Assembly: GCA_025456385.1 (NCBI GenBank)
Contig: JALOKS010000001.1
Span: forward strand, 1 to 37,126
From: Thermoanaerobaculales bacterium
GTDB lineage: Bacteria; Acidobacteriota; Thermoanaerobaculia; Thermoanaerobaculales; Sulfomarinibacteraceae
Reading direction: 5' to 3'
Length of the DNA: 37,126 bases
Below are positions 7,836-28,742 of this stretch, one piece after another. The notes under the pieces were generated by a model. The model searched no databases and was not told where the DNA came from. It was given only the letters and a program-made list of their open reading frames with translations. Position 1 is the stretch's first letter; each line of letters begins with the position of its first letter. Both the position numbers and the translations under genes were made by a program.

Positions 7836-7876
7836 CGCCGGTGCTCCTTGGTCTCGCCCTCTGCCCTGCAACGCGC

Positions 7877-9634: not shown

Positions 9635-9739
9635 CCCCCCTTTTCGATTCCCCTCATCGTGCGGTCCCCGGTCCGTGTTCAAGCCTCATCCTCCTCGCTA
9701 GATGCACCCGATTGTGAACCTAGCCTCCGTAATTCCATG

Positions 9740-9768
9740 ACCTTACGGGTTCCCCCGCGTGCTGTCAA
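9740..9768 (-). promoter_or_regulatory. candidate sigma70-type promoter for rpsA
   Basis: Minus strand reads TTGACA (9768..9763, overlapping the cmk stop), a 17-nt spacer, then TAAGGT (9745..9740). This would give a ~100-nt lower-GC leader before rpsA. Confidence 0.4.
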
Positions 9769-10520
9769 GCACCGCCGTCCAAAACCCGTGCGACCTCCCC
9801 GAGGAGGCGTTCGACCACCTCCTCGAGCTCGAGACCGGTGGTGTCGACGACGACCGAGCCGGTCGCGACCTGGAGCGGGCTCTCCGCCCGCATCGTGTCC
9901 TGGAGATCGCGCTGGCGCTGCTGCTCCCGCACCGCGTCCAGGCTCGTGTCGGCGCCGCAACCGCCGAGGTCGCGATGCCGGCGGCGCGCCCGCTCCTCGG
10001 GGCTGGCGGTGAGGAAGACCTTCAGCGTCGCGTCGGGGAGAACGACCGTTCCGATGTCGCGGCCCTCCATGACGCCGCCGTGGAGCTCGCCCAGGCGCCG
10101 CTGCATCGGGACGAGGGCGCAACGAACCGCCGGCAGCGCCGACACCGCCGATGCCATCAGCGAGCAGTCGGCGCTGCGGAGCTCGCGGCTCACCTCCTCG
10201 CCGTCGATCAGGACCCTGGTCCCTTCGGGCCCGACCTCGACGTCGAGCGAGTGGGCCGCCATCAGCTCGCCGATCCGCGCCTCCGCACCGCCCTCGAGCG
10301 GCGGCGTGAGGCCGTCACGGAGAGCCAGGAGGGCGACCGCGCGGTACATGGCGCCGGTGTCGATGTGGGGCACCCCGAGGCGCGCGGCGAGCCGCGCCGC
10401 CACCGTCGACTTGCCGGCCCCCGCCGGGCCGTCGATCGCGACGAGCACGGGCGCTGGCGGGTGGCGACGTACGATCGGGGGCACGGCTCCGGGTCCTTTC
10501 GCGCTCGCGCGACGCGGCAT
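9765..10520 (-). CDS. cmk: cytidylate kinase
   Basis: VAIDGPAGAGKSTVA P-loop, then HIDTGAMYRAV and GRDIGTVVLPDA motifs. The true start may be the GTG at 10484. Confidence 0.9.
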   Translation of the reverse strand: MPRRASAKGPGAVPPIVRRHPPAPVLVAIDGPAGAGKSTVAARLAARLGVPHIDTGAMYRAVALLALRDGLTPPLEGGAEARIGELMAAHSLDVEVGPEGTRVLIDGEEVSRELRSADCSLMASAVSALPAVRCALVPMQRRLGELHGGVMEGRDIGTVVLPDATLKVFLTASPEERARRRHRDLGGCGADTSLDAVREQQRQRDLQDTMRAESPLQVATGSVVVDTTGLELEEVVERLLGEVARVLDGGA

Positions 10521-10580
10521 TGTACCCGGCCGCCACCGATCTTCAAGCCCGCCGTTGCGGCGGCGGGGAACGGTCGGGGC

Positions 10581-11708
10581 TCAGACCCCGCCGCGCACCG
10601 GCCGCGAGCCTGGAGCCCGCGTCGCAGCGATCACCACCGGCACCTCGACCGTGGGTCGCTCGTCGTCGCTGGTGCTGATCCGGACCCAGCCCCGGACGCC
10701 CGCTCCGAGCGCTGCAGCGTCGAGGCCCTCCGGGAGGGCGATCCTCACCGTCTGCTCGCTCGACGCCTCCCGCGACACGGCGCTGGCGACGAGGTGCTGC
10801 GGATGCGAGACCTCGACCGCGCGGATGGCGAATGGACGGCCGCCGTTGTGGCGCAGTCTGAGAAAGGTCGATCGCCCCGACTCGTCCGCGGAGGCATTCG
10901 CCCACATCCGCACCGACGCGGGCAGGGCCTCGATGAGGGGCCGCACCCTGAGCGTGTAGGGGATCTCGAGCGACGGAGCCTCGGGGTGGTCGGTCGTGAT
11001 CCGGACGGCGCCGGAGAAGATGCCCGCCGGCAGTGAGGGCGCTGCCTGCAGCTCGATCGGCACCGCGTCCGGTGCCGGTGGGGCGGGCGGCGCGTCCTCG
11101 ACCTGACCCCATGGGGTCGGCGTTCCGCGGCTCGCGGCCGGCCCACTCTCACCGCCGGCGGCGGCGCCCCCGACGACCAGGTCGAGGCCCTCGCGGTCCG
11201 TGCTCGCCTCGAGAACCCGGAGCGGGCGGCCGTCGTCGCGTGCGAGAAGGAGCCGGGCCGCGCCGCTGCGGCCCTCGATGAGCGAGAGGCTGAAACGGAA
11301 CGCCGGGCTCACCGTCACGGGCATGTGAACGTCGACGGAGAAACGGAGGCGGATCTCGGCCGCACCCGGCGCGTCGGTCGTCACCGCGATCAGCTTGGAC
11401 AGACGCCCGCTCTGGCCCGCTGCGGTCTTGAGCCTCGCGACCAGCTTTCCCGACGAACCCGCCGGGATGACCGAGTCGAACTCGGCCACCGTGCAGCCTC
11501 AGGAGGGCGCGGCCTTGAGGATGCGGACCTCGGAAGGGCTGTCGTTGCGAAACACGAAGGTCGCGGTCGCAAGCTCACCGGCCGTGATGCGCCCGAGGTC
11601 GAGATCGGCCATCTCGACCCGGAACAACCCTTCGCCCCTCTCCTCCTCGCCGGCTGCCACAGACGCCAGCAGCAGCGCGAGCGCGAGCGTTCCGACCGCT
11701 TTCCTCAT
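10581..11708 (-). CDS. exported DUF1573-like protein interrupted by one in-frame TGA (11499..11501): candidate Sec codon or pseudogene
   Basis: ORFs 11499..11723 and 10581..11489 share a frame and are separated only by TGA-GGC-TGC-ACG. The joined sequence has a signal peptide (MRKAVGTLALALLLASVAA) and a DUF1573-type domain ...FVFRNDSPSEVRILKAAPS-[TGA]-GCTVAEFDSVIPAGSSGKLVARLKT. The TGA replaces the first Cys of the family's S-C-G-C-T motif. Confidence 0.6.
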
Positions 11709-11759
11709 GCGTCCCCCAGGCACCGCGCGACCTCGGACGATTGTAGCAGCGGGCCCGCT

Positions 11760-12530
11760 TCAGCCCGCGACGGCCCGCTGTCCGAGGAGCCGCCCGTCGG
11801 TGGCGACCACGAGGCACTCGACCGGCACCGTCCGCCGCGCCCGCCGCACCGCCTCGGTGGCGAGGCGCAGCAACCCGCCGCAGCACGGCACCTCCATGAC
11901 CATGACCTGCAGTGAGCGGATCTCCGCCTCGTCGATCATCGCCACCAGCTTGCCGAGGTAGACCTCCTGGTTCGAGTCGAGCTTGGGGCAGGCGATGGCC
12001 AGCGAGCGTCCCCTGAGGTAGCGGCGGTGGAAGTCGCCGACGGCGAAGGCGACACAGTCGGCCGCCAGCAGCACGTCGGCGCCGCGGAAGAAGGCGGCCG
12101 TCGGCGGCACGAGGTGCAGCTGCACCGGCCAGTGCCGCAGCTGCGAGGTCTGGTCGCCGCCAGCCGCGGGCGGGCCCTCGACCGGTCGCGGCATGAGCTG
12201 CGGCCGCGAGCCCGGACAGCCGAGGTGGGGCTCGGGCTGCGCCAGCACCTGCAGGACCGGGGGCGTCGCCGGCGCTGCCGCCGCGCCGCCGGCTGCGAGG
12301 TGCCGGGCGACCGCAGCCTCGTCGAAGGCGGCGGCCTCGCGGCGGATGACCGTGATCGCGCCCTGCGGACAGTGGCCGAGGCATGCCCCGAGGCCGTCGC
12401 AGTAGGTGTCGCTCACCAGCCGCGCCTTGCCGTCGACGATCGCGATCGCGCCCTCGGCGCAGGCGCTGACGCAGTCGCCGCAGCCGTCGCAGCGCTCCTC
12501 GTCGATGACGATGACGTCCCTGAGCGGCAT
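11760..12530 (-). CDS. 4Fe-4S dicluster domain protein
   Basis: Two ferredoxin-type clusters (CDGCGDCVSAC and CDGLGACLGHCP). Conserved C-terminal region with ADCVAF...IACPKLD...MEVPCCGG. Confidence 0.75.
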   Translation of the reverse strand: MPLRDVIVIDEERCDGCGDCVSACAEGAIAIVDGKARLVSDTYCDGLGACLGHCPQGAITVIRREAAAFDEAAVARHLAAGGAAAAPATPPVLQVLAQPEPHLGCPGSRPQLMPRPVEGPPAAGGDQTSQLRHWPVQLHLVPPTAAFFRGADVLLAADCVAFAVGDFHRRYLRGRSLAIACPKLDSNQEVYLGKLVAMIDEAEIRSLQVMVMEVPCCGGLLRLATEAVRRARRTVPVECLVVATDGRLLGQRAVAG

Positions 12531-12532
12531 GC

Positions 12533-12892
12533 TCAGGCTCCTTTGGGCTCGCGCAGCATCGTCAGCAGCATGCGCGCTCGCTCCGGAGCGTGCAGCGCGT
12601 GCGGCACGCCGGCGGGCATCCGCACGATCTCGCCGGCCCGCGCGTGGACTGCGACGCCGCCGATGCTGAGGTCGAGCGCCCCGTCGACGACCAGCACCAG
12701 CGCGTCGAAGGGAGCGGTGTGCTCGGACAGCCCCTGCCCGCGGTCGAAGGCGAACAGGGTCACGTTGCCGCCGCCGGTCCGGGCGAGGACCCGGCTCACG
12801 ATCGCCCCTTCGGCGACCTCGACGAGTCCGCTCACGGCCGTTGCGCGGTCGGCCGGGAGCTCGATCGGGGCTTGGGACTGCGGTGCGCTCAT
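12533..12892 (-). CDS. cupin domain protein
   Basis: Internal ATG (MSAPQSQ...) preceded by GGAGG. Cupin motifs G.GLSEHTAPFDALVLVVDG and RMPAGVPHAL. Its stop lies 2 nt before the start of the 4Fe-4S gene. Confidence 0.7.
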   Translation of the reverse strand: MSAPQSQAPIELPADRATAVSGLVEVAEGAIVSRVLARTGGGNVTLFAFDRGQGLSEHTAPFDALVLVVDGALDLSIGGVAVHARAGEIVRMPAGVPHALHAPERARMLLTMLREPKGA

Positions 12893-12969
12893 GGTCGTGC
12901 CTCCAGTGGACGATGCCTTGTCACGGCCCCGATGATGACGGCCCGGAAGGCAGGCGTCCTTGACCCGGG

Positions 12970-14235
12970 TCAAGCGCGCGGGTACACGGCCCCGGAGACC
13001 ATCACCCCGACGGTCGCCCCAGGGCGCTCGGCGCGCCACCGGTCCGCGACCTCGGCAGGCCCGGCAACCGGCACGAAGCCCAGGCGGAGGGCGAGCTCCG
13101 GCGCGAGGCCGGAGTGGAGCCGCACCGTGTACCTCCCGGTCTTTTCCACCAGGCGCAGCGTGGTGTGACCGTACTGCACCCAGCCGCGGGCCAGGCGCTC
13201 GGCGATGGCCGCGGGGCTGGGGTCGGCCAGAAAGGGCTCCATCGCGGGCGAGCCGGCGCCGCCGTCGAGAGCGGCGACGAACAGCAGCTCGCCCCCGGGG
13301 GCGAGAAAGCGGCTGGCCGCGTCCAGTGCCTTGTGGGCCTGGATCAGGGTCCTGTCCTCGGGGGCCCCGCCGGCCGCGGCGACCATGAGCTCGAAGGGTG
13401 GTCCGGCCGGGACCTCGAACCAGGTCCGCACCCGCTCGACGGCAGCCGCGAAGCTCTGCTCCAGGGGCCCCGCCGCCGCCCACGCCGTGCCGCCGTCGCG
13501 TCCGCGCACCAGGCACACCGCCAGATCCGGAGGGCGCAGGGCGGCGCCGCGGCGGATCTCCTCCGCCACCGGGTTGCCGACCAGCAGCCCGGGCTCGCAC
13601 CCCGGATGGCGGGCCATCCCTCCGCCGGGCGAGGCGCTCATCACCAGCGCGTGGTTGGCCTGGATCTCGGTGTGCCCGGCGAGCCCGGGGAAGATCATCT
13701 TCGGGCCGCCCCCGAAGCCTGCAAAGTAGTGGTGCCGGACGGTGCCCACCGTCACCAGGAGCCCGGCCTCGACCGCCCGCCGGTGCAGGCGCAGGGGCAG
13801 GCCCGGACGCAGCTCGCCGACCGCGATCAGAGAGGCCTCGTCGCGGCTGTCGTGCTCGATGAGCTCGACCCCGGCCGGAAGCTCGCCGACGAGCTCGCGT
13901 GCGCCCGCCGCGCCGAGCCCGGGGTGGGTGCCGCAGGCCACGGCCACCAGCGTCCGGTCCGCGGGGACGCCGGCCTCCCGCAGCCTGCCCAGGAGCACCG
14001 GCAGGATCCGGGGCAGCTCGACCCTGCGGGTCGCGTCGGGAACCACGAGAACCGCGCTGCCGCGGCCGCGGGCGAGCTCCGCGAGAGACGGACCGCTCAA
14101 CGGGCGGTCGACCGCATCGCCGACGATCCGGGCCGGGTCGCCGCCGCCGGGAGCCGAGGGCGCGAGCGGCCGCACCCGAAGGCCCCGCAGATCGACCGCC
14201 AGCCGTTCCGTGCCGCAGGGCAGCGTGACGATCAC
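12970..14235 (-). CDS. larA: LarA-family (DUF2088) nickel-pincer-dependent racemase/epimerase
   Basis: VPDATR, ACGTHP, and HHYFAGFGGGPK (the Lys-containing NPN attachment region), in a 421-aa protein collinear with lactate racemase. Substrate cannot be inferred. Confidence 0.75.
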   Translation of the reverse strand: MIVTLPCGTERLAVDLRGLRVRPLAPSAPGGGDPARIVGDAVDRPLSGPSLAELARGRGSAVLVVPDATRRVELPRILPVLLGRLREAGVPADRTLVAVACGTHPGLGAAGARELVGELPAGVELIEHDSRDEASLIAVGELRPGLPLRLHRRAVEAGLLVTVGTVRHHYFAGFGGGPKMIFPGLAGHTEIQANHALVMSASPGGGMARHPGCEPGLLVGNPVAEEIRRGAALRPPDLAVCLVRGRDGGTAWAAAGPLEQSFAAAVERVRTWFEVPAGPPFELMVAAAGGAPEDRTLIQAHKALDAASRFLAPGGELLFVAALDGGAGSPAMEPFLADPSPAAIAERLARGWVQYGHTTLRLVEKTGRYTVRLHSGLAPELALRLGFVPVAGPAEVADRWRAERPGATVGVMVSGAVYPRA

Positions 14236-14297
14236 CGCTGCACCATAGCACCCCGAGCGGGACCCGGTTCGGGTGTCGCCGCCGATGGCGACGGAGC

Positions 14298-16250
14298 TCA
14301 GAGCTCGATGCCGAGGACCTGGCGTTGGTACGCGCCGAGGCTCGGGTAGGAGCGGAAGGGCTGACCGCGGGCCGCGTCCCAGTCCGGCAGGGGCACCGCG
14401 ACCGAGGCGTCCAGGATCTTGACCGCGAACAGGCGAAAGGCCGCCCAGAGCTCCTCGCCGCCGACCATCGTCCGCGGGTCGAAGCCGTCGCTCGTCACCC
14501 GCAGGCTGCGCGCGCCGCCCGCCGCTCCAGGCTGATCGAGGAGCAGGTCGAGGACGCCGATCGGTTTCGAGCCGGGCCGCGCCACCACCCCGACCGCCAC
14601 CGCCTGCACCTCCCGCAGGTCGAGCTCGCGGCTGTGGCCGCTGCAGTCAACGCGCAGGAGGTGGCCGTCGAGGGCGAGCGGGACGGCCTCGGTCACCTCG
14701 AGGACTGCGGTCCGCGAGGTGGCCGCCGCCGGGTCCGTTGCGGGCGGCCGGTTCGCCGACGGCCCGGCGGCGCCGCGCACGCGCCCGCCCCGGGCGAGGC
14801 CCCACATCGCCACCTCGAGCTCCGGACGGGCATCCGCCGGGGTCTCGGGGTGCTCGAGCGCGGCGCGGACCATCGCCTCGATGCTCGGCGCCTCGAGCAG
14901 GAGGCCGAGCCGTGCCATGCGCAGCAGCACCGCCGCCGGCGTCGAGGACGACGCGCGCTGCCGCGCGAGCTCGAGGGTCTCGACGGCGGACACCACCCGT
15001 TGCTCCTGGTCGAGGATCTCCGCGATCCGCACCGCCGCCAGCGGGTCGATCGCGACCTCGGGAACGTGGACCAGAACCTCCTCCCAGTGCGAGACCACGA
15101 AGCCCGAGTCGTCGGAGCGGAGCGCGCCGAGGATCGCCCGCACCATCGGCTCCACCGCCCGCGCGGTCTCGCCGTGGGCCACAGCCAGGTTCCAGAGCGC
15201 CATCGCCGCGTCGACATTGTCGGGCTGCTTCGCGACCTCGTGCTGGAGCGCCTCCAGGGCCCCTTCGACATCCCCCGTCCTCGCCTTCGCCACCGCGCGG
15301 TCGACGGCGGGGTTCTCCAGCAGGGTGACCTTGTCCTCGATCGCCTGATGGATGAAGCGATCCTCGATCCGGAAGTGGGCCATCACCGCCGCGAAGACCA
15401 CTCCGAACGCGAAGCCCCAGACGTGGGCCCAGAAGCCGACCCCGCCTCCCCCGGACCTGCGCAGCACCGCGTCCATGGCCTGGGCCGACAGCAGCTGGAT
15501 CCCGAACCAGCCGGGGAGGATCACCCAGGCCGGCGCCTGGAAAGGGCCCACCGGCACGCCCAGCCAGAGGAGGAAGCGGACCTGCGAGCGGAAGTAACGC
15601 ACCAGGAACGCGCCCATCACGCCGGCGATGGCGCCGGAGGCCCCCACCAGGGGCACCTCGAGAGCCGGGTAGCGCACGGCGTACATGAGGCCCGCGACCG
15701 CGCCGGCCGCGAGGTAGAAGGCGACGAAGAGGGGGCGCCCCCAGACGTCCTCGACGAAGGGGGCGACGACCCAGAGCATGAGCAGGTTGAGCAGCAGGTG
15801 GAACCACCCGGTGTGCAGGAACTGGTAGGTGACGAGGTCAGCGGCCTCGAGCCTGACCGGGACCAGACCGAAGCGGTAGAGCAACGACTCCTGCAGGCCG
15901 CGGTGGTAGGCGTCGAGGATGGTGTCGAAACGCCGCTGCTCCCACTGCAGGCGCTCGGGATCCGAGGGCGCCCGGGGGCCGTCGCGCCGCATGTGCTCGG
16001 CGAAAGCGACCGCCTTCTCGTCGCCGAGCTCGATGGCGAAGATCTGCAGGAAGCGCTCGTCGATCTCGAGGTAGGGATGCTGGGTGAAGTACCCGAGAGC
16101 CTGGTGGAGGCGAAGGAAGCCGAGCATCTGCTGCTCGTGCTCGCCCGGCGCCATCAGGATGAAGGTCACCGTGCACGCGACGATGATCGAGAACGTGACC
16201 CACGGCAGCCGGCGCACGCTCGTCTGCTCGTGGCCGAGGGGAATGATCAT
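14298..16250 (-). CDS. rhomboid-family intramembrane serine protease with ~380-aa C-terminal extension
   Basis: ATG at 16250 (MIIPLGHEQ), with GGAGA upstream. Rhomboid core: HTGWFHLLLNLLMLW, catalytic GASGAIAGVMGA, and WAHVWGFAFG (His). The remainder is a soluble helical/TPR-like region plus a terminal beta-rich domain. Confidence 0.8.
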   Translation of the reverse strand: MIIPLGHEQTSVRRLPWVTFSIIVACTVTFILMAPGEHEQQMLGFLRLHQALGYFTQHPYLEIDERFLQIFAIELGDEKAVAFAEHMRRDGPRAPSDPERLQWEQRRFDTILDAYHRGLQESLLYRFGLVPVRLEAADLVTYQFLHTGWFHLLLNLLMLWVVAPFVEDVWGRPLFVAFYLAAGAVAGLMYAVRYPALEVPLVGASGAIAGVMGAFLVRYFRSQVRFLLWLGVPVGPFQAPAWVILPGWFGIQLLSAQAMDAVLRRSGGGGVGFWAHVWGFAFGVVFAAVMAHFRIEDRFIHQAIEDKVTLLENPAVDRAVAKARTGDVEGALEALQHEVAKQPDNVDAAMALWNLAVAHGETARAVEPMVRAILGALRSDDSGFVVSHWEEVLVHVPEVAIDPLAAVRIAEILDQEQRVVSAVETLELARQRASSSTPAAVLLRMARLGLLLEAPSIEAMVRAALEHPETPADARPELEVAMWGLARGGRVRGAAGPSANRPPATDPAAATSRTAVLEVTEAVPLALDGHLLRVDCSGHSRELDLREVQAVAVGVVARPGSKPIGVLDLLLDQPGAAGGARSLRVTSDGFDPRTMVGGEELWAAFRLFAVKILDASVAVPLPDWDAARGQPFRSYPSLGAYQRQVLGIEL

Positions 16251-16351
16251 GCGGTCTCCAGCCGCCTCCAACGTTACTACAGCGGGCGCCCGCCAGAACC
16301 CGCTCGCCTCGGTCCGAGATGTCTCCCGGTACCCCCCGGGTTCCTGCTGCC

Positions 16352-17602
16352 TTAACCGGGCCCGACCTCGCTCCGCAGCCGCTGCGCGAGCTGCAGCAGG
16401 GCCGGGTCGGTCGGGTGGCGGTCGAGGGCTCGCGCGAGGGTGCTCGCGGCCTCGGCGAAGCGGCCCTGGCGGAGCTGCAGCGAGACCAGGCTCGCCGCCA
16501 GCGGCGCGGAGTCCGGCTCGAGCTCGAGCGCTCGCGCGAGCGCCAGCGCGGCGTCGCTGCCGCGGTCCGCCCGCTCCGCGACCCGTGCGATGCGCGTCAG
16601 GAGGCGGACATCCCCGGGCGCCATGCCCCACGCGCGCCGCAGGTGAGCGAGAGCCGTCGGCGCGTCGCCGCGGCGCTCGGCCAGTGTCGCGAGCGCGAGG
16701 TAGGGGTACGGAGAGCCGGGGTCGAGGCGCAGGGCCTCCTGCGCCGCAGCCAGGGCGCCCGCCGCGTCCCCCTCGAGGTCCCGCGCGACCGCGAGCAGAG
16801 ACCAGCACCGCGCGCGCTGGCCGCGCGCGGCCGGGGGCTTCGCGAGCAGTGCCTCCAGGTGCTGTCGCGCCGGGGCCGGGTCACCGTCATCGATCGACCA
16901 CTGGGCGAGCTCGAGCTGCACGGCCGGCGCCGCGGCGAGCGGAGCCAGGACCTGTCGGGCCTCGAGGTCGAGGCCCAGGCGTCGCAGCTCGCCGGCGAGG
17001 GCGAGCGCGTTGTCGACCCGGCGTCGCGGGTAGAAGCTGTCGCGCAGCTCGAGGCCCCGCATCCGGACCCCTGCCTCCTGCCCGGGTGTCAGGTCGACGG
17101 GCGGCGACCGCAGGCCCGGGGCGATGGCCTCGGCGATCGCCAGCTCGGCAAGCGCGGGCTCGACGCGGCCGTCGGCGAGGAGCGTCAGGGCTCGCAGCCG
17201 CCGCAGACCAGGCAGCGAGGGATCGCGGAGGAGCGCCGCCGCCAGCTGCTGCTCGGCCTCAACCACGTCGCCGCTCAGCAGTGCGGAGCGCGCGAGGTTG
17301 GCCGCCCCCACCGGATGGGCGGGCATCCACCGCGCCTGCAGCGACCCGATGCGGCCGAGCATCGGCGCCAGCACCTCCCGCGGGACCTCGCCGAAGTCGC
17401 GCAGCGCGAGGCGGCGGGTGCGCTCGACGACCGGCGGCCAGGCGATCGCTCGCCCTCCGGCGAGCTTCGCCGCCAGCGCCCCGGGGTTCTCGGGCGCGGT
17501 CGCCCGCGCCCGCAGCCACCACCACCACCCCGCGGTGTCGACGCTGAGAACCGCGGCCGCGGCGATGGCGAGGCCGATCCACGCCCGCTTCCCCGGGCTC
17601 AC
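16352..17602 (-). CDS. membrane-anchored TPR repeat protein
   Basis: GTG at 17602 overlaps the murB-like stop (GTGA). N-terminal TM helix (AWIGLAIAAAAVLSV), followed by repeated TPR-like A..L..AL.L.P units. Confidence 0.65.
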   Translation of the reverse strand: MSPGKRAWIGLAIAAAAVLSVDTAGWWWWLRARATAPENPGALAAKLAGGRAIAWPPVVERTRRLALRDFGEVPREVLAPMLGRIGSLQARWMPAHPVGAANLARSALLSGDVVEAEQQLAAALLRDPSLPGLRRLRALTLLADGRVEPALAELAIAEAIAPGLRSPPVDLTPGQEAGVRMRGLELRDSFYPRRRVDNALALAGELRRLGLDLEARQVLAPLAAAPAVQLELAQWSIDDGDPAPARQHLEALLAKPPAARGQRARCWSLLAVARDLEGDAAGALAAAQEALRLDPGSPYPYLALATLAERRGDAPTALAHLRRAWGMAPGDVRLLTRIARVAERADRGSDAALALARALELEPDSAPLAASLVSLQLRQGRFAEAASTLARALDRHPTDPALLQLAQRLRSEVGPG

Positions 17603-18516
17603 GGGTCGATGCCCTCCCCGTCCTCGTCGACGAAACAGAGCGCCGAACGCAGCACGGTTCCGGTCCGCGCCGTCACGCGATCGCGGGCCAGCCGCACGAG
17701 GTCCAGGACCTCGGCGGCCCGCGCGTTCTTGGCGGTCGAGACGCGGTTGGCGCCATCCGACGCCAGGCTCGCTCCGCCCACCGTGAGGCCGAGGCACCCG
17801 GCATCGGCGAGCACGGTCTCCGCCCGCACGCCCTCCGAGCCGACGAAGACGGGCGCCGTGGTGCGGGGTCGCCGTGGCGGCGGCCCGCCCGCGTCCCCGC
17901 GCCGCCGGTGCAGGTCGTGGCGGCCGTCGGCCGCGAGGTGCAGCCGCGCCCTGATGACGACCCGACGCCGGAGATCGAGCCTGCGGCGTGAATCGGGCTC
18001 CACCGACCGGGTGGTCAGTCGCAGCCGCTCGACCGCGGCACCGGGTCGCGCCACCTCCACCCAGTCCAGGACGCCGTCGAGCGGGAAGTCGCCCCGTCCG
18101 GAGGCCTGGATCACTCCGCCGACCGTGCTCGAGGCGGCGGCAAGGGGCTGCGTGCCCGGGAGGCCGGTCCGTGCCGCGGCTCGGCACACCTGTGCCATCA
18201 TGGCACCACCGCCTGCGACCGCACCCTCGAGCTCGAGCTCCCACAGGCCCAGGCTTCCGCTGAGGTTGAGCACCGGCACCCGCAGCCCGCGGTCCGAGGG
18301 CACGAGGCGGCTGCCCGAGCCGAGGACCAGCCACTGCCGGCCGTGGGTCGCGAGCAGGTCAAGGGCCCGCTGAAGCCCGTCGGCACTGCGACATCTGATC
18401 AGCAGGTCGGCCGTGCCGCCGACGCCGAGGGCGGTCCAGGCGCGGAGGTCGACCCGCTCGTGGATCTCGGGCTCGCCGCCCTGCTGCAGGCTCCGGAGGT
18501 CTTTCTTCAGGCTCAC
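17599..18516 (-). CDS. MurB-like FAD-binding oxidoreductase (divergent UDP-N-acetylenolpyruvoylglucosamine reductase homolog)
   Basis: Collinear with MurB: RVDLRAWTALGVGGTADLL, WLVLGSGSRLV, GLPG...STVGGVIQ, and a C-terminal GLTVGGASLASDGANRVSTAKNARAAEVLDLV. Start placed at GTG 18516, which gives an N-terminal length like Bacillus MurB. The ORF could extend to GTG 18594. Confidence 0.6.
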   Translation of the reverse strand: MSLKKDLRSLQQGGEPEIHERVDLRAWTALGVGGTADLLIRCRSADGLQRALDLLATHGRQWLVLGSGSRLVPSDRGLRVPVLNLSGSLGLWELELEGAVAGGGAMMAQVCRAAARTGLPGTQPLAAASSTVGGVIQASGRGDFPLDGVLDWVEVARPGAAVERLRLTTRSVEPDSRRRLDLRRRVVIRARLHLAADGRHDLHRRRGDAGGPPPRRPRTTAPVFVGSEGVRAETVLADAGCLGLTVGGASLASDGANRVSTAKNARAAEVLDLVRLARDRVTARTGTVLRSALCFVDEDGEGIDP

Positions 18517-18555
18517 GAACCGGTCCCGGACGCCAGACGGCAGGTTCTGAAGATG

Positions 18556-18572
18556 CTGGCACGCACTTTGCT
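18556..18572 (+). promoter_or_regulatory. sigma54 (-24/-12) promoter
   Basis: CTGGCACGCACTTTGCT matches the consensus YTGGCACG-N4-TTGCW, with the GG and GC elements correctly spaced. It is the only such full match I found in the window. Confidence 0.6.
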
Positions 18573-18582
18573 TTCTATGGCG

Positions 18583-18666
18583 GCAGCCGGACACCCAACG
18601 ATCCGGTCCACCGCATCATACCTCCTCCTTCCTCCTGCGGGCCCCCCGGCCCGCACCCTTTTTTTT
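18583..18666 (+). ncRNA. candidate sigma54-dependent small RNA with CU-rich anti-Shine-Dalgarno tract
   Basis: Lies between the sigma54 promoter and an intrinsic terminator. Contains hairpin CCGGA-N10-UCCGG (18587..18606), the single-stranded tract CAUCAUACCUCCUCCUUCCUCCU (18614..18636), and a terminator hairpin plus U8. No + strand ORF. The 5' end is inferred, not observed. Confidence 0.5.
18636..18666 (+). terminator. rho-independent terminator (+ orientation)
   Basis: GCGGGCC-CCCC-GGCCCGC (7-8 bp GC stem, 4-nt loop), then ACCC and T8 (18659..18666). In the minus orientation an A-tract precedes the stem and no U-tract follows it. Confidence 0.6.
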
Positions 18667-18711
18667 GCGAGCCGGATCATCCCTGCTCCCCGGTCGCTCC
18701 GTTCGAGCGTC

Positions 18712-21700
18712 TCACCCGTCGTCCTCCAGGTCCGTGAGGCAGAGATTGCGGATGTGGTAGAGCAGCACCTGGCGCGAGATGCCGAGCTCGCGCGCCGCGG
18801 CGCTGCGGTTGCCGCCGTGCCGCGAGAGGGCCGCGGTCAGGAAGCGGCGCCGAAAGTCCTGCTGGGCCTGCTCCCAGGTCGCCGCCGGTGCCGGCTCCTC
18901 GCCGGCGCAGGGCAGGTGCTCGGGGCGCACGACGCCGCCGCGCGCCCTGACCATCGCCACCTCGACCACCTGCTTGAGCTCGCGGACGTTGCCCGGCCAG
19001 TGGTACCGGCGCAACGCGCCTTCGGCCTCGGCGCTCCACGACGGCAGTCGCAGCCCGTGGCGGGCGCAGGCCTCGCGCTCGAAGAGAGAGCGCAGGAGCG
19101 GAATGTCCTCGCTCCGCTCCCGCAGGGGCGGGATGAGCACGTCCGGCGCCGCGATGCGGAAGAAGAGGTCGCGGCGGAAGGCGCCGTCCCGCATCCGCCG
19201 TTTGAGGTCGCGGTGGGTCGCCGAAACGATGCGGACATCGACCCGCCGCGCCTGGTGGGCGCCGACAGCCCGCACCTCGCCGGATTCGATGAAGCGCAGC
19301 AGCTTGACCTGGAGCCCGGGGTCGAGGTCACCGATCTCGTCGAGGAAGAGCGTGCCGCCGTCGGCAGCGACCGCCAGGCCCAGTCGTGAGCGGTCGGCGC
19401 CCGTGAAGGCCCCTTTGACCGATCCGAAGAGCTCCGCCTCGAGGAGGCTGCCGGGGATGGCGGCGATGTTGACCGCGACGAAGGCGCCGGAACGGCCCGA
19501 GAGGCGGTGCAGCGCTCGCGCTGCGACCTCCTTGCCGACGCCCGTCTCACCGAGGAGGAGGATCGGAAGGTGGGTCGGTCCGAGCTCGCGCAGCTCGCTG
19601 CGAAGCCACCTCGCCGCCTCCGACACGCCAGCGAAGCCGGTGTCGTCGACCTCGCCGCTCGTCGCCACCCGGCCTCTCGGCAGCACGAGGTCGAGAATGC
19701 CGAGGATGAGATGCCGGACCGGTCCCTCGCTGAGCTCACCCCCGAGCGGAACCACGAGCAGCCGGCCATGACGCATCTCGGGTCCCGGAGGCCCGTCGCC
19801 GTGGCGCCACAGGAGGCTGCGGTCGGCGCCGTCCCGGATTTCGAGCCCTCCCACCCCGAGCGCGGCGAGCAGCGTGGCCGCCTCCGCGGGCTCTCCGCCG
19901 TCGACACCGCCCCTCTCCACGACCCTGGCGAGCGCGGTAACGACCTCCCCCGCGCGGCCGGCGACGCCGTCGCAGGCGTCAGCCCAACCCACCAGCCCAG
20001 CCGCGCGGAGGGTCCGTGCCGCGCGCCGCCGGCGCTCGGGTTCGACCGCCAGCCGGCGTCCGGCGACCCGCTCGGCAAGAACGAGGGCGAGCGCGCCGGC
20101 GGGTGTCTCGACATCGATCTCGACGGCCCCGGCCGCAACCCGACCGCTGTCGGAGGGGCCCGCGAGGAGGGCGGCCGCCTGCGCCACCCCCCACCCGTCA
20201 CCGGGCGCCGCGGGCGGTCGGTCGCCGGCCGCGGCGGCGCTCAGCGCCAGCCACGCCTCGCCCTCCTGACCGGCCCGCCGCAGCAGCTCCGCGGCGCGGC
20301 GCGGGTCGCCGTCGAGCAATGCGGCGGCTCCCCGCAGGAGGCTCAGCCCTTCGTCGAAGCGGGCGTCGCCGTTCGCGACCGTCCGCGAAAAATCCTCCAG
20401 GCGCCGGCGGAATGCGACTTCGTCACCGACGGCGAGCGCGAGCCTCGCCAGCTCGCCCTTCGCGAAGGGGTCCACCGGGTCGAGCTCGAGCAGTCGCTCG
20501 AGCCGCTCCGCGGCCTGCTCCACCCGCATCTGGTCGACGTCGGCGACCGCGAGGTTGAAGAGCGGACCCGAGATGAGGTGCGCGAAGCCGGCCGCCCGCA
20601 GCAGCTGATAAGCGAGCAGATCGTGCCGCACCGCCACCCGGCTCTCGCCGAGAGCGAGGGCCGCGGCACCGAGGTCGAGCTCGAGCATCCCGCGCAGGCC
20701 CGGCCCCATCGGGTTCCGCGCCAGCACCCGCAGCAACCGCCGCGCTGCGGAGGCGTCGCCCCGGTCGATCAGCGCAACCGCCTCGCGGTGAGCCGCACGG
20801 ACCCGCAGTGCGGTGTGCCGACCGGCGAGAGCCCGCGTCGCGCGGGTCCCGGGTCTCCCGCCGGGTGGGTCCGCGAAGAGGAGATCGATCTCGATCCGCC
20901 GCGCGACGAGCTCGCCGAGGCCCGGGCGGCACGCCGCGAGCGCCGCCCGCGGCGGCGCGCGGTCCGCTTCGGGGTTGCAGCGCTGGCCGACCAGCACCAG
21001 GGCCGCCGCCTCGGCTGCCGCTCGCGGCTGTGATCTCGCCTCGTCGAGGGAAGGGACCCGCCGCGCCGCACCCGGCGCCGGGTCCAGGTTGTCGAGCCAG
21101 ACGGTCAGCGCACCGCGACCTGCCGGCGCGACGCCCGCGAGGGCGGTGCGTGCTCCCGCGAGGTCGAGCACGGCCAGGCAGGCTTCGGCAAGCAGCAGCT
21201 GCAGCCGATCGCCGAGGGCTCCGCCGGCGAGCTGCGCCAGGAGCTCCCGCACGAGACCTGAGTCGAGGCGGTCGAGGCTCCCTCTCGCCCACGCCTCGAG
21301 CTCCTCCGCGTCACCGCTGCCGAGGGCCTCATGCAGCAGCCGCTGGGGGCTCCCGGGCGCGTGCAGGGCCGCCACCTGGAGGTGCCGCGGGTCCGCCGCG
21401 AGCGCCCGTGGTTCCGGAAGCCGCCAGCGTCCCTCGGACTCCACGACTCCGAGAAACCGGCGCTGGATCTCCAGATCCGCCGGTGGGAGCGCCGCGTGCA
21501 GCGCGAGAAAGCCGGGCGGCAGGCCGTCCGGCGCCAGCGCCAGCCAGCTCTCCAGGATCGACCCGCCGCTCCCGGCCGCGGGCCCGCCCGGCGGCCGCCG
21601 CCGCGGCGCCGGCGTCAGCCTCCGCAGGAGGCCGTTCGTGAGGGCCCCCCGATCGGCCGCTGCAAAGGGCTCGAACCGCCGCTGCCGGGCGTCAATGAGC

Positions 21701-22602
21701 TCCTGAGCGACCGCGGGCGGTACGCCGGTGATCGCGAGGTTGCGGGGCGAGATCCCCGCACCGGGCGGCGGCGGCTCAGCCGCCCAGCCGCGGGGAAAGA
21801 GCCCCACCGCGACCGCGCTGCAGCCCTCCCGCTGCGCCCAACGGGCCAGTGCGTTGAGCTCTCCGTGCGACAGCCTGCCGACCACGATCAGGGCGCCGTT
21901 CTCCCCCGGAGTCCGCGCCCACCGCTGATCGGCGCCCGGCTCGTCGGCCGCCTCCAACCACGCCGACCGGCCGCGGCGGCGCAACGCGCACCAGAGGGCC
22001 GCCGCGAGCCGCCGCGCCGTCTCCTCGGGGGGGACCCGCCACTGGTGGAGATCGCCCTCAGCCGGCAGCGGCAGAGGGTCCCACCGGAGAGCCCAGAGCG
22101 CCCGGGCCGTCAGGGGGTCGAGCGATCCTCCCAGCTCTCGCAGCTGTCGTGCGAGCGCGCCCTCGAGGGACAGCCCGGGCTCCGCCCGGTTGCCGTCGAG
22201 CTCCCCCGGCGGGAGCCCGGTGGCGCGCGCGACCCGATCGATGACCGCAGCACGGGCGGCCTCCATGGCGCCCTCGCCGCCGCCGAGGCGATCGAGGAGC
22301 GGCGACAGCGGGCACGGAAGGCGGCCGAGCACCGCCCGCACGCCCTCCTCGCAGCGATGCAGCCGGAGCCCGGCAAAGGCCGCGCGGCCGAGCCAGAGGT
22401 CGAAGTCGCTCAGGAGGGACGCGGCCGCCGTCAGCTGGACCGCGGCGCGGAGGCGGTCCCGGCGCGACAGCGAGGCGGCGTTCACCGCGCGACGGGTGGT
22501 TGCCGTCTCCTCGGCGACGAACGGGGCGAGCCGCGGCAGGGGTAGGCTCGGGTGCTCGACCAGCAGGGCCGCAGGCTCCGGTATCCGCACGTCCCTACCC
22601 AT
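18712..22602 (-). CDS. sigma54-dependent transcriptional activator (bEBP) with very large non-canonical N-terminal region
   Basis: C-terminal AAA+ sigma54-interaction module: GETGVGKE (Walker A), VKGAFTGA (GAFTGA loop), LFLDEIGDL (Walker B), [16 protein letters not shown]. Fis-type [22 protein letters not shown]. About 950 preceding residues are Ala/Leu/Arg-rich and helical, with no receiver, GAF or PAS signature visible. ATG at 22602 overlaps the aroA stop by 8 nt; the alternative start is 22665. Confidence 0.85.
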
Positions 22603-23872
22603 CCCGCGCGCCCGCCACCAGCCCCTCCCAGGCGGCCCAGAAGCCCGGGAAGGACTTGCCGACACAGCTGCCGTCGTCGACCGTGAGAGGCCCCGCCGCC
22701 AGCGCTGCGACCGCCATCGCCATCGCCACGCGGTGATCGCCCGCGGCGGTCACCGGGCGCGCCGCACCGCTCTGCCGCCGGAGGGGCGAGGCGACGGTCA
22801 GCGCCGACTCCCCCACCTCGAGGACCGCCCCGAGCCCGCGGAGGTTGGCGACCATCACCGTGAGTCGGTCGCTCTCCTTGTGCGCCAGGTTGCCGAGGCC
22901 GGTGAGACGGGAGCCCGGCGGGGCGCAGGCCGCCACCACCGCGAGCGCCGGGAAGAGATCGGGCGTGCTCTCGAGGTCGGCCGCAATCGGGTCTGCGACC
23001 GGCCCGCTCGCCGAGACCCACTCCCCCTGCCAGGCGCACCTGAGACCGGCGGCGGCGAGCACCTCCAGAACCGCACGGTCGCCCTGCCGGCTGCGCGGGT
23101 CGAGAGGGCCGACGGTGACCCGACCGCCGGTGACCGCAGCAGCCGCGAGCAGGAACGCGGCCGCCGACCAGTCACCCTCGACCGTGAGGGTGCTCGGGCG
23201 CAGCCCTCCGGCAGGCACCTGCCAGAGCCGCCGGTCGGCGCTCGCCACCACCTCCGAGCCGAAGGCGCGGAGGACCTCGCTCGTCAGGTCGAGGTAGGGT
23301 GCGGAGGGCAGGGGACCGGCCACCTCGAGCTCGAGCCCCTGCTGCATCAGCGGCGCCGCCAGCAGCAGGGACGAGACGAACTGTGAGGACAGCCCGGGCC
23401 GAATCGCGGCTCGCCCGCCGGCGAGCCGGTGGCCCTCGACCGTGGCCGGCAGAAAGCCGCCCGCGGCCTCGATCCGCGCCCCGAGAGCCCCCAGCACCTC
23501 CAGCAGGGGCGCCATCGGGCGCTCGCGCAGGCGCGGGCTGCCGTCGACGGTCGCCCGGCCGGGAAGCGCCGCGAGCAGCCCCAGGATCAGGCGCGCGCCG
23601 GTGCCGGAGTCGGCGAGATCGAGAAGCGGCCGCCCGGCGGGGGTCGAACGTCCGCCGACGGTGACCTCGTCGCGCCACTCCACGGGCCAGCCGGCAGCGG
23701 CCAGGGCCGCGGCGAGGACCCGGGTGTCACCGCAGTCCAGCGGCCGGCGGATCCTGCCTCCGCCGGCGGCCGCCGCCGCGATCAGCGCCCGGTTGCTGAT
23801 GCTCTTGGAGCTCGGGACCTCGACCGCCGCGTCGAGCTCCGCGTGCGGTCCCGGGAGCTCGCGCGGGATCAC
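22595..23872 (-). CDS. aroA: 3-phosphoshikimate 1-carboxyvinyltransferase (EPSP synthase)
   Basis: [44 protein letters not shown] and [11 protein letters not shown] motifs. GTG at 23872 overlaps the upstream stop (GTGA). Confidence 0.9.
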
Positions 23873-24651
23873 GGGCCGGCGCTCCCCTCTCGCACCGGAG
23901 GGCCGTCGGCGAGCGCGAGCGGCAGCGGCTCGAGGCGCTCGCCGACGAGGGCCCAGGAGCCGTCGTCTGCGACCAGCACCGAGGTCCTCGTGTCGAGCCA
24001 GGCCGGCATCACCAGCGCCTCGCGCTCGCCGCTGCGCCGCAGCCACGGCGAGTGGAAGTGCCCCCAGAGGACGACATCCACACCCTCGGCCCAGGCCGCC
24101 TCGGCGCTCCGCTCGAGGTCGGCGACGGGCTTGAAGAAGCGGAACCTGCGGTTCGTCATCGCGAGGTGGGCCTCCATGCGGCGGACGATGGACGTCGCCA
24201 GCCCGCGCGGCAGCAGTCGCGCCCACAGCCTGGCCGCCGCCGACTTCGAGATCGTCGACCAGAAGCGGTACTGGAGGTCGCGGCGGTTGACGAGATCGCC
24301 GTGCACGAGCTCGAAGACCCGGCCGCCGGCACTGAACCGGTAGCTCCGCCCGCTCCAGTCGAGCTCGGCGGCGAGCTCGGGCTCGTCGAGGAAGAAGTCG
24401 CGGTTGCCCTCGACCACGACCAGCCGGAGGCCGCGACCGCGCAGCTCGCGCCACACGCCCAGCACCTGCCGCACCGACGCCGTCCAGAACTTGGACATGC
24501 CGATCAGGTACTGGAAGGCGTCGCCGAGATAGATGATCTCGGCGACGCCCTCCTCTTCGGCCGCGCGCAGCAGCGCGATCATCGCCGCCGCGTCGTCGGC
24601 GCCCTGCCCGACGTGCGAGTCCGCGACGATCAGGCGTTTCATGCCGGCCAT
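23869..24651 (-). CDS. LpxH-like calcineurin-type metallophosphoesterase (probable UDP-2,3-diacylglucosamine diphosphatase)
   Basis: IVADSHVG, YLGDAF, EGNRDFF, VHGD and WGHFH motifs in LpxH order. The start is ATG 24651 or 24642. Confidence 0.65.
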   Translation of the reverse strand: MAGMKRLIVADSHVGQGADDAAAMIALLRAAEEEGVAEIIYLGDAFQYLIGMSKFWTASVRQVLGVWRELRGRGLRLVVVEGNRDFFLDEPELAAELDWSGRSYRFSAGGRVFELVHGDLVNRRDLQYRFWSTISKSAAARLWARLLPRGLATSIVRRMEAHLAMTNRRFRFFKPVADLERSAEAAWAEGVDVVLWGHFHSPWLRRSGEREALVMPAWLDTRTSVLVADDGSWALVGERLEPLPLALADGPPVREGSAGP

Positions 24652-24722
24652 GGTAGCGCAGGCCGGGAGGTCGTCACACGTTGGAACGACGCACGCTCGA
24701 ACGACGGGACCGCCTGTGCCGG

Positions 24723-25808
24723 CTAGCCGTTGCGGCGCGCGAACTCCTCCATGAAGGCGCACAGCGCCTGCACTCCTGCCAGCGGCATCGCGTTGTAGAT
24801 CGAAGCGCGGCAGCCGCCGACCGAGCGGTGGCCCTTCAGCCCGACCATGCCCTGGGCCTTGGCCTCCGCCACGAACTTCGCTTCCAGCTCCTCGCTCGGG
24901 AGCCGGAACACGACGTTCATGAATGAGCGGCTCGCCGGGTCGACCGGGCAGCGGTAGAACGCGGGGTGCGCCTCGATGGTCCCGTAGAGCAGCCCACCCT
25001 TCTGCCGGTTGCGCGCCTCCATCGCCGCGAGCCCGCCCTCGTCGCGCACCCACTCGAGGACGTTCCGGACCATGTAGATGGCGAAGGTCGGGGGCGTGTT
25101 GTAGAGCGACTCGTTGTCGGCGAAGGTGCTGTAGCGCAGCATGGTCGGCAGCTTGCCGTTCGCCTTCTCGAGCCAGGACTTGCGGACGATGACGATCGTC
25201 ACCCCGGACGGGCCGACGTTCTTCTGGGCGCCGGCATAGATGAGGTGGAAGCGATTCGCGTCGAAGGGTCGCCAGAGAAAGTCCGACGACATGTCGGCGA
25301 CCAGCGGGACCTGGCCGCTGTCGGGGAAGTCGTGGAACTGGGTCCCCTTGATGGTGTTGTTCGAGGTGACGTGGAGGTAGGCCGCCGCCGGGTCGAGCTC
25401 GTACTCGCCGGGTCCCGGGATGCGCGTGAAGCCGCCTGGCTCGCCGGTCGCGGCGGCGCGCGCCGAGGCGACGATCTTCGCCTCCTTGAGGGCCTTCTGC
25501 GACCAGGAGCCGGTGACGACGTAGTCGGCCGATCCGCCCGGCGGGATGAAGTTCATCGGCACCATCGCGAACTGGAGCGATGCGCCGCCCTGGATGAAGA
25601 GGACCAGATGGTCGTCATCGAGGCCGAGGAGAGCCTTCAGCAGGTCCATGGCCTCGTGATGCACGGCGTCGTACTGCGCCGAGCGGTGCGAGATCTCGAG
25701 CACCGACATGCCGGTGCCGGCCCAATCGGGCATGTCGGCCTTGGCACGCTCGATGGCGGGCGCGGGGAGAATCGCCGGCCCGGCGTAGAAGTTCAAGGTT
25801 GTGCTCAT
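24723..25808 (-). CDS. serC: phosphoserine aminotransferase
   Basis: NFYAGPAILP N-terminus, QGGASLQF, and class-V aminotransferase layout. Length 361 aa. Confidence 0.9.
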   Translation of the reverse strand: MSTTLNFYAGPAILPAPAIERAKADMPDWAGTGMSVLEISHRSAQYDAVHHEAMDLLKALLGLDDDHLVLFIQGGASLQFAMVPMNFIPPGGSADYVVTGSWSQKALKEAKIVASARAAATGEPGGFTRIPGPGEYELDPAAAYLHVTSNNTIKGTQFHDFPDSGQVPLVADMSSDFLWRPFDANRFHLIYAGAQKNVGPSGVTIVIVRKSWLEKANGKLPTMLRYSTFADNESLYNTPPTFAIYMVRNVLEWVRDEGGLAAMEARNRQKGGLLYGTIEAHPAFYRCPVDPASRSFMNVVFRLPSEELEAKFVAEAKAQGMVGLKGHRSVGGCRASIYNAMPLAGVQALCAFMEEFARRNG

Positions 25809-28052: not shown

Positions 28053-28640
28053 TCAGGAGAGGGTGAGGCGGAGGCGGATCGGGGCCTCCCAACCCTCCGC
28101 CATGACGGTGAGGAAGAAAGGCCTGCCCGCCTCGAGCTGGCGCGGGCGCTCGAAGTACATGAGGTCGGCCATGCCGTAGCCCTGGGGCAGAGTGACCACG
28201 TCCCGGGCGGTGCCGCCGCGGGTGACCTGGAGGTCGGGAAAGAAGTTCGTCTGCGAGAAGCGGCCAGAGCTCGCCCACACCTGCCACGGGATCCCGCCGG
28301 TGCTGACCATCCGCCGGTCCATCGAGATCCTCCCGTAGCCCTTGCGCCACTCCCGCACCGTCGGCATCGGGTAGAGCACCTCATCGAGGTCGCTCAGCCA
28401 GAAGCTCTCGCGGTCGAGCGTTATCTTGGCCGCCGCGAGGTTCTGGACGCCGATCACCATCGGTACGAAGGGCTCCTTATCGCGCTGCCCGGTGAGGCTG
28501 AGGTTGGCCCACACCTTGCCGGAGGCGTCCTCGGCGACGAACAGGATCTGCGACGGCTCGTCGTCGTACCCGCCCACCGAACCGGCCACGGCCACCGCCA
28601 CCCCGAGCGCGCCGACGACTGCAACGAGCCACTGCCGCAT
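28053..28640 (-). CDS. hypothetical exported protein
   Basis: Internal ATG at 28640 preceded by GAGGGGG. Signal-peptide-like N-terminus MRQWLVAVVGALGVAVAVAG. 195 aa, no recognised family. Confidence 0.55.
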   Translation of the reverse strand: MRQWLVAVVGALGVAVAVAGSVGGYDDEPSQILFVAEDASGKVWANLSLTGQRDKEPFVPMVIGVQNLAAAKITLDRESFWLSDLDEVLYPMPTVREWRKGYGRISMDRRMVSTGGIPWQVWASSGRFSQTNFFPDLQVTRGGTARDVVTLPQGYGMADLMYFERPRQLEAGRPFFLTVMAEGWEAPIRLRLTLS

Positions 28641-28742
28641 CACCACCCCCTCGTACCCGCACCCTCGGCAACGCGTCCCGAGAGCCGTGTGTTCCAGAGC
28701 CGCGCGTAGAATACCCCCTGCTCGGCTCGGCCGACTGCGGTC

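Follow-up and report, generated by a model that had tools for sequence, protein, structure and literature searches.

The plus strand of a 37,126-nucleotide stretch of DNA from a Thermoanaerobaculales bacterium (Acidobacteriota; contig JALOKS010000001.1, positions 1 to 37,126, hereafter called the window) very probably carries an RNA gene with a sigma-54 promoter (ca. 18583–18666, ca. 85 nt). It is located between two minus-strand genes that encode a MurB-like FAD-binding protein and a bacterial enhancer-binding protein (bEBP). The overall explanation that we favor, with a probability of roughly 0.7, is an independently transcribed noncoding small RNA (sRNA) that would be activated by this bEBP and would act both in trans, through anti-Shine-Dalgarno (aSD) pairing, and in cis as an antisense RNA. 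Judged separately, the adjacent bEBP is probably the activator of the sRNA promoter, and the case for aSD translational repression as the mode of action seems to us evenly balanced. A sequence check of plus-strand positions 18557–18666 found a promoter, a hairpin, an unpaired CU tract, and a terminator in that order:

18557–18571, plus strand (feature span 18557..18572): sigma-54 promoter TGGCACGCACTTTGC with TGGCAC as -24 element and TTGCT as -12 element
18582–18584, plus strand: predicted transcription start, ca. 11–13 nt past the GC of the -12 element according to standard sigma-54 promoter geometry
18586–18591 and 18602–18607, plus strand: stem-loop 1 with a 6-bp stem (GCCGGA/UCCGGU) and a 10-nt loop, from RNAalifold and covariation
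18608–18636, plus strand: unpaired linker and CU-rich tract, candidate seed against Shine-Dalgarno (SD) sequences and start codons
18614–18636, plus strand: the CU tract itself, CATCATACCTCCTCCTTCCTCCT, containing CAUCAUACCUCCUCCUUCCUCCU and unpaired in the predicted fold
18637–18666, plus strand: intrinsic terminator composed of a 7–8-bp GC hairpin (GCGGGCC-CCCC-GGCCCGC, 18637–18654), ACCC, and T8 (18659–18666)

These elements had been outlined in a preliminary description of the locus made from the sequence alone, and we recovered all of them to within one base, the T-run ending at 18666 and thus one base earlier than the end given there. As described, both neighbors are encoded on the minus strand, i.e., the MurB-like gene (FAD_binding_4/MurB_C) on one side and the gene of a bEBP with a GAFTGA motif (Sigma54_activat, HTH_8) on the other.

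Homologous sequences were retrieved through peptide motifs of the MurB-like protein and thus without recourse to the RNA itself, which resulted in 34 genome loci encoding proteins that are 41–65% identical. Every one of these protein-anchored loci (34/34) has the complete unit ahead of the MurB-like gene and on the strand opposite to it, i.e., TGGCA(C/T)-N5-TTGC, a GCCNGN/NCNGGT hairpin, CATCATACCTCCTCCTTCCTC, a GC hairpin, and a T-run. Counted over 34 distinct sequences, i.e., the window and 33 protein-anchored loci, the 21-nt core CATCATACCTCCTCCTTCCTC is invariant, as are TGGCA, TTGC, TGCGG, and CCGC. Over codons 1–100 of the MurB-like gene, four-fold sites display 1.2–1.9 bits of entropy and a plain 3-nt periodicity. 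Divergence at neutral positions is therefore extensive, and the unit has been conserved by selection. Even compared to the closest relative (L064, with a MurB-like protein that is 89% identical), there are substitutions in spacer, linker, and flanking sequence, and the promoter elements, stems, and core are free of them. Promoter, CU tract, and terminator have thus been kept together as a unit with covarying hairpins, and neither TGGCA/TTGC nor the U-tract is ever lost among the relatives.

Additional variation outside the core was obtained from a scan of metagenome contigs with a 20-mer of the core, which matched 82 contigs including 74 with the full unit. The combined alignment (A2) comprises 109 instances with 85 distinct promoter-to-terminator sequences, and a T-run follows the terminator hairpin in every full-length homologue. 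With a covariance model built for the family (R1), a single copy was detected in the window (113 bits) and likewise a single copy at each locus, with no extra copies or paralogues in the window or at homologous loci, while unrelated matches of the 20-mer score below 18 bits. A mobile or viral origin was considered and rejected because two IMG/VR and six metagenome matches of the 20-mer are unrelated SD-plus-ATG sites without promoter or hairpins. In these contigs (L060, L067, L073, L082, L107, L111, L117, and L118, two of them from IMG/VR), the reverse complement of the 20-mer core reads GAGGAAGGAGGAGGTATGAT, a strong SD plus ATG, and gives an idea of what the sRNA seed would pair with perfectly.

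Both helices of the RNA were predicted by unguided RNAalifold. Across 13 specified pairs and 85 distinct sequences (1105 cells), 1104 cells (99.9%) pair on the plus strand, compared to 23–44% when the partners are slid by 1–3 columns. Double-sided changes were found in 59 cells versus 18.4 ± 4.0 in shuffles, and none of 500 shuffles reached this number. The small hairpin of the preliminary description is borne out as a 6-bp stem (GCCGGA/TCCGGT) with an N10 loop. It is paired in 99.8% of cells and conserved with compensatory changes from GC to UA, AU, or CG (e.g., at columns 39/51). Similarly, the terminator stem is paired in 100% of cells, with GC replaced by AU in 33 sequences and CG by UA in 10. 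G·U pairs account for 160 cells, with columns 34/56 being G·U throughout (85 of 85 sequences). Each of these pairs would turn into C·A on the minus strand, where pairing falls to 944 of the 1105 cells. These G·U pairs together with the directions of the promoter and the T-run therefore indicate a functional RNA on the plus strand.

The unit had been described as lacking an open reading frame (ORF), in agreement with our finding that the plus strand contains no plausible one. One-base indels among the homologues shift the reading frames, and there is therefore no conserved peptide on either strand. On the minus strand, a short ORF opens at AUGAUG in every homologue, with a frame and a length that vary: it runs in three frames (MMSCTRSL..., MMRVPGRC..., or MMRYQVVV...) over 3 to more than 68 codons. 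We therefore rejected a small minus-strand protein starting at AUGAUG because neither its frame nor its length is conserved.

The promoter is equally distinctive, as TGGCAY-N5-TTGC occurs at exactly one site on both strands of the 37 kb versus 0.04 expected from shuffles, and both TGGCA and TTGC are invariant in 85 of 85 distinct homologues. The -24/-12 sigma-54 promoter proposed earlier therefore has the correct elements with the correct spacing. The spacer between the -12 element and the hairpin (16 columns) is the least conserved part of the unit, with a mean pairwise identity of 46% among the 34 distinct protein-anchored sequences. Elsewhere in the window, a sigma-54-like site with one mismatch (TGGCCCACACCTTGC; 28505–28519, plus strand) lies ca. 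190 nt upstream of an MFS transporter gene (28710–29927). The number of such one-mismatch sites is within chance expectation (2 found, 2.1 expected).

A direct repeat, CGGAGGTC, had been put forward as a weak candidate enhancer site for this promoter. It is indeed present at 18443–18450 and 18494–18501, but both copies are located inside the MurB-like coding sequence, where CGGAGGTC is the reverse complement of GAC-CTC-CGN and supplies the D-L-R codons within KDLRS and within the invariant ERVDLRAWT. The third codon positions of both D-L-R triplets vary freely across homologues, and we therefore rejected the enhancer role of what are two Asp-Leu-Arg codon triplets without DNA-level constraint. 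More generally, the promoter is preceded by 300 bp of MurB-like coding sequence whose third codon positions vary freely.

The RNA from 18583 to 18667 is predicted to form two hairpins that leave ca. 29 nt unpaired, including the whole CU tract, with a minimum free energy (MFE) of -24.9 kcal/mol (z = -3.7). The tract is unpaired in both the MFE and the centroid folds. It corresponds to the 23-nt pyrimidine tract that had been noticed previously (CATCATACCTCCTCCTTCCTCCT at 18614–18636), and the canonical terminator that had been read next to it is called by a terminator scan, which reports a hairpin and T-tail on the plus strand only, with T8 at 18659–18666. The CAUCAUACCUCCUCCUUCCUCCU segment is complementary to an idealized translation initiation region (GGAGG...AUGAUG), and the minus strand of the tract, AGGAGGAAGGAGGAGGUAUGAUG, combines a very strong SD with a start codon. 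In addition, the tract contains CCUCCUCCU, which matches 8 of 9 bases of the aSD motif CCUCCUCCC. The comparative analysis thus shows an RNA with a predicted architecture in which 29 single-stranded nucleotides separate a 5′ hairpin from a terminator hairpin with U tail. Some relatives (L005 at 1700–1760, L010, and L014) carry a second GC-rich hairpin past the sRNA terminator and before the bEBP stop codon. It is preceded by the T-run of the sRNA and followed by an A-run and is not a canonical terminator on either strand.

The sRNA is embedded in a set of genes that is conserved around it:

18712–22602, minus strand: bEBP gene (ca. 1296 aa), convergent with the sRNA and with its stop codon at 18712–18714 (Pfam, NCBIfam)
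17599–18516, minus strand: MurB-like FAD-binding gene, divergent from the sRNA and with a probable GTG start 41 nt from the -24 element (Pfam)
22595–23899, minus strand: aroA, located immediately before the bEBP gene, whose start it overlaps (NCBIfam aroA equivalog, above cut-off)

A bEBP orthologue was found by tblastn downstream of the sRNA in convergent orientation, 36–473 nt from the core, in all 104 instances with enough contig (window included), and 73 of these also keep the long N-terminal region. The MurB-like gene is always upstream and divergent, with a start 96–104 nt from the core in every instance with room (tblastn), and the bEBP gene immediately follows aroA in 24 of 25 instances with enough sequence (window included). 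The comparison shows a conserved sigma-54 promoter and a CU tract that is invariant and predicted to be exposed, together with an obligate linkage to one bEBP family.

The C-terminus of the bEBP consists of Sigma54_activat (E = 3.9e-56), AAA_lid_14, and HTH_8 domains (Pfam) with the GAFTGA motif in its translation, and Pfam gave no Response_reg match, i.e., no receiver domain. Its N-terminus (ca. 990 aa of the long ORF were scanned, corresponding to ca. 970 aa from the probable ATG) showed only faint TPR matches in Pfam and NCBIfam and no relative in the PDB. This region (19696–22602, minus strand) is 33–54% identical in most orthologues and has been replaced in some lineages (e.g., L024, L034, L043, and L091). 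The ATG of the bEBP gene overlaps the stop codon of aroA (ATGGGTAG; 22595–22602), which suggests translational coupling of the regulator to an aromatic amino-acid biosynthesis gene.

The MurB-like protein has Pfam FAD_binding_4 and MurB_C domains and scores 91 bits versus the 259-bit cut-off of the NCBIfam MurB equivalog. The ...GCAFKNPPG... segment of Thermus MurB (2gqt) aligns to ...APVFVGSEG... in this protein, which may thus not be the housekeeping MurB. Many of its database homologues are annotated as 331 aa instead of 305 aa, and a longer ORF also exists in the window, where it extends from a GTG at 18594 across the sigma-54 promoter and hairpin 1 (18517–18594, minus strand). The 331-aa form is probably a start-codon over-extension because the residues before 'SLK' are not conserved, and this over-extension by gene callers probably hides the sRNA gene.

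On a larger scale, the locus belongs to an array of minus-strand genes in the order serC, aroA, bEBP, MurB-like, TPR, and rhomboid, followed further on by cmk, rpsA, and an IHF-beta-like gene. Nearly all of these are housekeeping genes, and the candidate sRNA is the single plus-strand unit among them. The co-directional array spans 7551–25808 (serC 24723–25808, cmk 9765–10580, rpsA 7877–9685, IHF-beta-like 7551–7889), with the bEBP, sRNA, MurB-like, TPR, and rhomboid genes placed between aroA and cmk, in an arrangement that we take to recall the serC-aroA-cmk-rpsA-ihfB neighborhood of enterobacteria. The homologues of the MurB-like protein and their contigs are from Acidobacteriota, mostly of the class Thermoanaerobaculia and chiefly from metagenome-assembled genomes (MAGs) of Candidatus Sulfomarinibacteraceae. 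Some MAGs with a Thermoanaerobaculia-type locus (L007, L005, and L023) are labeled as Chondromyces sp., Deltaproteobacteria bacterium, or Ca. Methylomirabilota, probably due to mis-binned or mis-classified contigs.

In the mechanism that we favor, the giant bEBP would activate the promoter after its N-terminal sensor region has received a signal, and sigma-54 RNA polymerase would bind TGGCAC-N5-TTGC and transcribe up to the intrinsic terminator. The CU tract would then pair in trans with the SD and start-codon regions of target mRNAs and block their translation, comparable to the aSD-motif sRNAs of alpha-proteobacteria. In cis, the sRNA would be perfectly antisense to the spacer between the bEBP and MurB-like genes on an aroA-bEBP-MurB-like mRNA, which could link bEBP activity to MurB-like expression. 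Such an overlap of the sRNA with the opposite-strand transcript is likely because no sigma-70-like promoter and no minus-strand terminator were detected between the two genes (scanned over 17500–19500), because the operon layout is conserved among relatives, and because the bEBP gene appears to be coupled to aroA. With -63 kcal/mol, this cis-antisense site forms the best duplex in the window, and the start regions of the bEBP and MurB-like genes have no special complementarity to the sRNA.

Several observations weigh against this explanation or limit its support. No specific trans target emerged from the window, where duplex energies beyond the cis site are not distinctive at 72% GC. Both ungapped and codon-aware profiles of the ca. 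300 bp upstream of the promoter displayed only coding periodicity and no conserved enhancer (upstream activating sequence), and the stretch that separates the terminator from the bEBP stop codon differs among relatives in both length and content. The 74 metagenome instances were found via the core 20-mer itself and therefore do not count toward the invariance of the core. Finally, a run of 21–27 invariant nucleotides is longer than a typical seed of 7–12 nt, which hints that something else also constrains the sequence, e.g., binding to a protein, mimicry of rRNA, or a role of the other strand.

The most serious competing explanation, which we consider possible though unlikely, is that the sRNA works mainly as a cis-antisense RNA without important trans targets. 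It would tune the expression of the MurB-like gene, and perhaps of the bEBP gene, by convergent transcription or by pairing and RNase III-type cleavage on the aroA-bEBP-MurB-like mRNA. Its position as the sole plus-strand unit in a long minus-strand array fits this idea, as do the overlap of the bEBP ATG with the aroA stop codon, the apparent lack of promoter and terminator in the scanned interval between the bEBP and MurB-like genes, the fixed spacing of 96–104 nt to the MurB-like start in all instances, and the cis site as by far the best duplex in the window. However, antisense partners are complementary whatever their sequence, and an invariance over 21–27 nt amid a freely varying spacer and synonymous sites would thus be left unexplained; moreover, the co-transcription of the MurB-like and bEBP genes is itself something that we infer. 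We therefore rank trans action or an additional partner first because pure antisense pairing cannot explain the invariance of the tract. The two models are compatible and can both hold, with cis action as a likely added layer.

A combined explanation, which strikes us as rather doubtful, would have the invariant ca. 27 nt used on both strands, i.e., as a seed against SD sequences and start codons on the plus strand and as an SD plus AUGAUG ribosome-loading site on the minus strand. In such an autoregulatory cis-plus-trans circuit, the activated bEBP would switch off or cleave the MurB-like cistron of its own operon, and the RNA would titrate SD sites as a mimic of the 16S tail. If true, this circuit would tie the bEBP signal to cell-envelope precursor synthesis and translation in Thermoanaerobaculia.

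Quite improbable in our view is a decoy RNA that titrates SD sequences globally or sequesters a protein recognizing the 16S tail or CU-rich RNA. At 21–27 nt, the invariant tract is longer than ordinary seeds need, and it is exposed between two hairpins, both in line with this idea. The tract segment AUCAUACCUCCUCCUU also appears to resemble the 3′ tail of 16S rRNA, GAUCACCUCCUU. However, the targets of known aSD sRNAs with comparable motifs are specific mRNAs (PMC10746234).

Finally, we find it hardly credible that the conserved element is a minus-strand 5′ leader of the MurB-like mRNA (with SD AGGAGGAAGGAGGAGG and AUGAUG as leader peptide start, ribosome-loading site, or GGA-rich protein-binding site) and that the plus-strand features are incidental: the reverse complement of the tract does read as a textbook SD plus start codon and the short ORF beginning there in every homologue is in-frame with the MurB-like gene at one locus (L006), but its peptide is not conserved, being spread over three frames and 3 to more than 68 codons, both helices lose ca. 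15% of their pairs on the minus strand with the invariant G·U becoming C·A, and the invariant TGGCA/TTGC and T-run would have no role there.

With regard to known RNAs, cmscan against Rfam gave no match in the whole window at gathering thresholds and only SorY (RF02651) in the interval 18300–18800 at E ≤ 10. SorY, the only model with any alignment, has CAUACCUCC and a subsequent terminator in common with the Thermoanaerobaculia sRNA, and we rejected it as a chance-level match (12.8 bits versus a gathering threshold of 111, E = 6.1). The Qrr family (RF00378) was matched neither at the gathering threshold nor at E ≤ 10, and there was likewise no Rfam match to the alpha-r14/cuckoo family.

The preliminary description had likened the locus to Qrr1 beside luxO and to Pxr beside nla19. 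Qrr1 of Vibrio is a sigma-54/bEBP-dependent sRNA with a conserved single-stranded seed and an intrinsic terminator, and it resembles the Thermoanaerobaculia sRNA in these latter features and in adjoining the gene of a bEBP. Unlike the bEBP studied here, LuxO is a phosphorylated response regulator. Qrr seeds are also not known to be CU-rich anti-SD tracts, and the Thermoanaerobaculia sRNA is single-copy at each locus. LuxO belongs to the NtrC-type bEBPs (PMC4878744). Pxr is a sRNA with sigma-54 promoter beside the bEBP gene nla19 that is conserved with this neighbor (PMC5568312). Similar to the unit described here, it is ca. 100 nt long and intergenic, with a sigma-54 activator gene on one side and an oxidoreductase gene on the other (PMC5568312). 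However, Pxr, which is found in Myxococcus and other Cystobacterineae, has three stem-loops instead of two and is encoded downstream of nla19 in the same direction, whereas the Thermoanaerobaculia sRNA is convergent with its bEBP gene. Furthermore, Nla19 is a response regulator, whereas the bEBP studied here lacks a receiver domain and has an N-terminus of ca. 970 aa of no recognized family. The C-rich probe target of Pxr, CCCCCCACCCCUUCAGC (PMC5568312), is absent from the Thermoanaerobaculia sRNA, a comparison limited to this quoted segment. Given an acidobacterial rather than myxobacterial host, the RNA is therefore not Pxr, which we rejected also for its different sequence and fold. The shared arrangement of a sRNA beside a sigma-54 activator gene stands, but no kinship comes with it: there is no Rfam match, the phylum is different, and, because the bEBP has no receiver domain, we regard Qrr and Pxr as analogues and not as relatives.

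In its seed, the sRNA is closer to the alpha-r14/cuckoo sRNAs such as NfeR1 and CcsR, with which it shares an unpaired pyrimidine aSD motif that is ultraconserved (8 of 9 bases of CCUCCUCCC via CCUCCUCCU). Ultraconserved CCUCCUCCC motifs drive target silencing by NfeR1/alpha-r14 sRNAs (PMC10746234), and the cuckoo aSD motif occludes the ribosome-binding sites of many mRNAs including ntrBC, an mRNA of a bEBP system (PMC10746234, PMC4615179). In cuckoo RNAs, the motif is displayed in the loops of two or three hairpins, whereas the tract described here is one long linear segment between two hairpins. They are also alpha-proteobacterial and not sigma-54-dependent, with NfeR1 being activated by LsrB and repressed by NtrC. 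A full-text literature search found no such sRNA described in Acidobacteriota. From its sequence features, we read the RNA as a new family of a known type, i.e., a sigma-54/bEBP-dependent regulatory sRNA with an anti-Shine-Dalgarno seed, which would place it mechanistically within established categories.

Thermoanaerobaculia such as Ca. Sulfomarinibacter are known mostly as MAGs and form a little-studied, largely uncultured class, and model R1 can be used for annotating this sRNA family in such genomes. The locus represents a previously unannotated regulatory RNA with strong comparative support for a defined promoter, ends, fold, and seed, and it offers a candidate activator (the orphan bEBP of ca. 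1300 aa) as well as a candidate cis target (the divergent MurB-like gene). Its unusual points are the long invariant seed and the antisense placement inside the aroA-bEBP-MurB-like block. On our reading, it would add another phylum to those in which a sRNA gene adjoins that of a sigma-54 activator, as in Qrr/LuxO and Pxr/Nla19, and would carry the use of CCUCC-type anti-SD seeds beyond the Proteobacteria.

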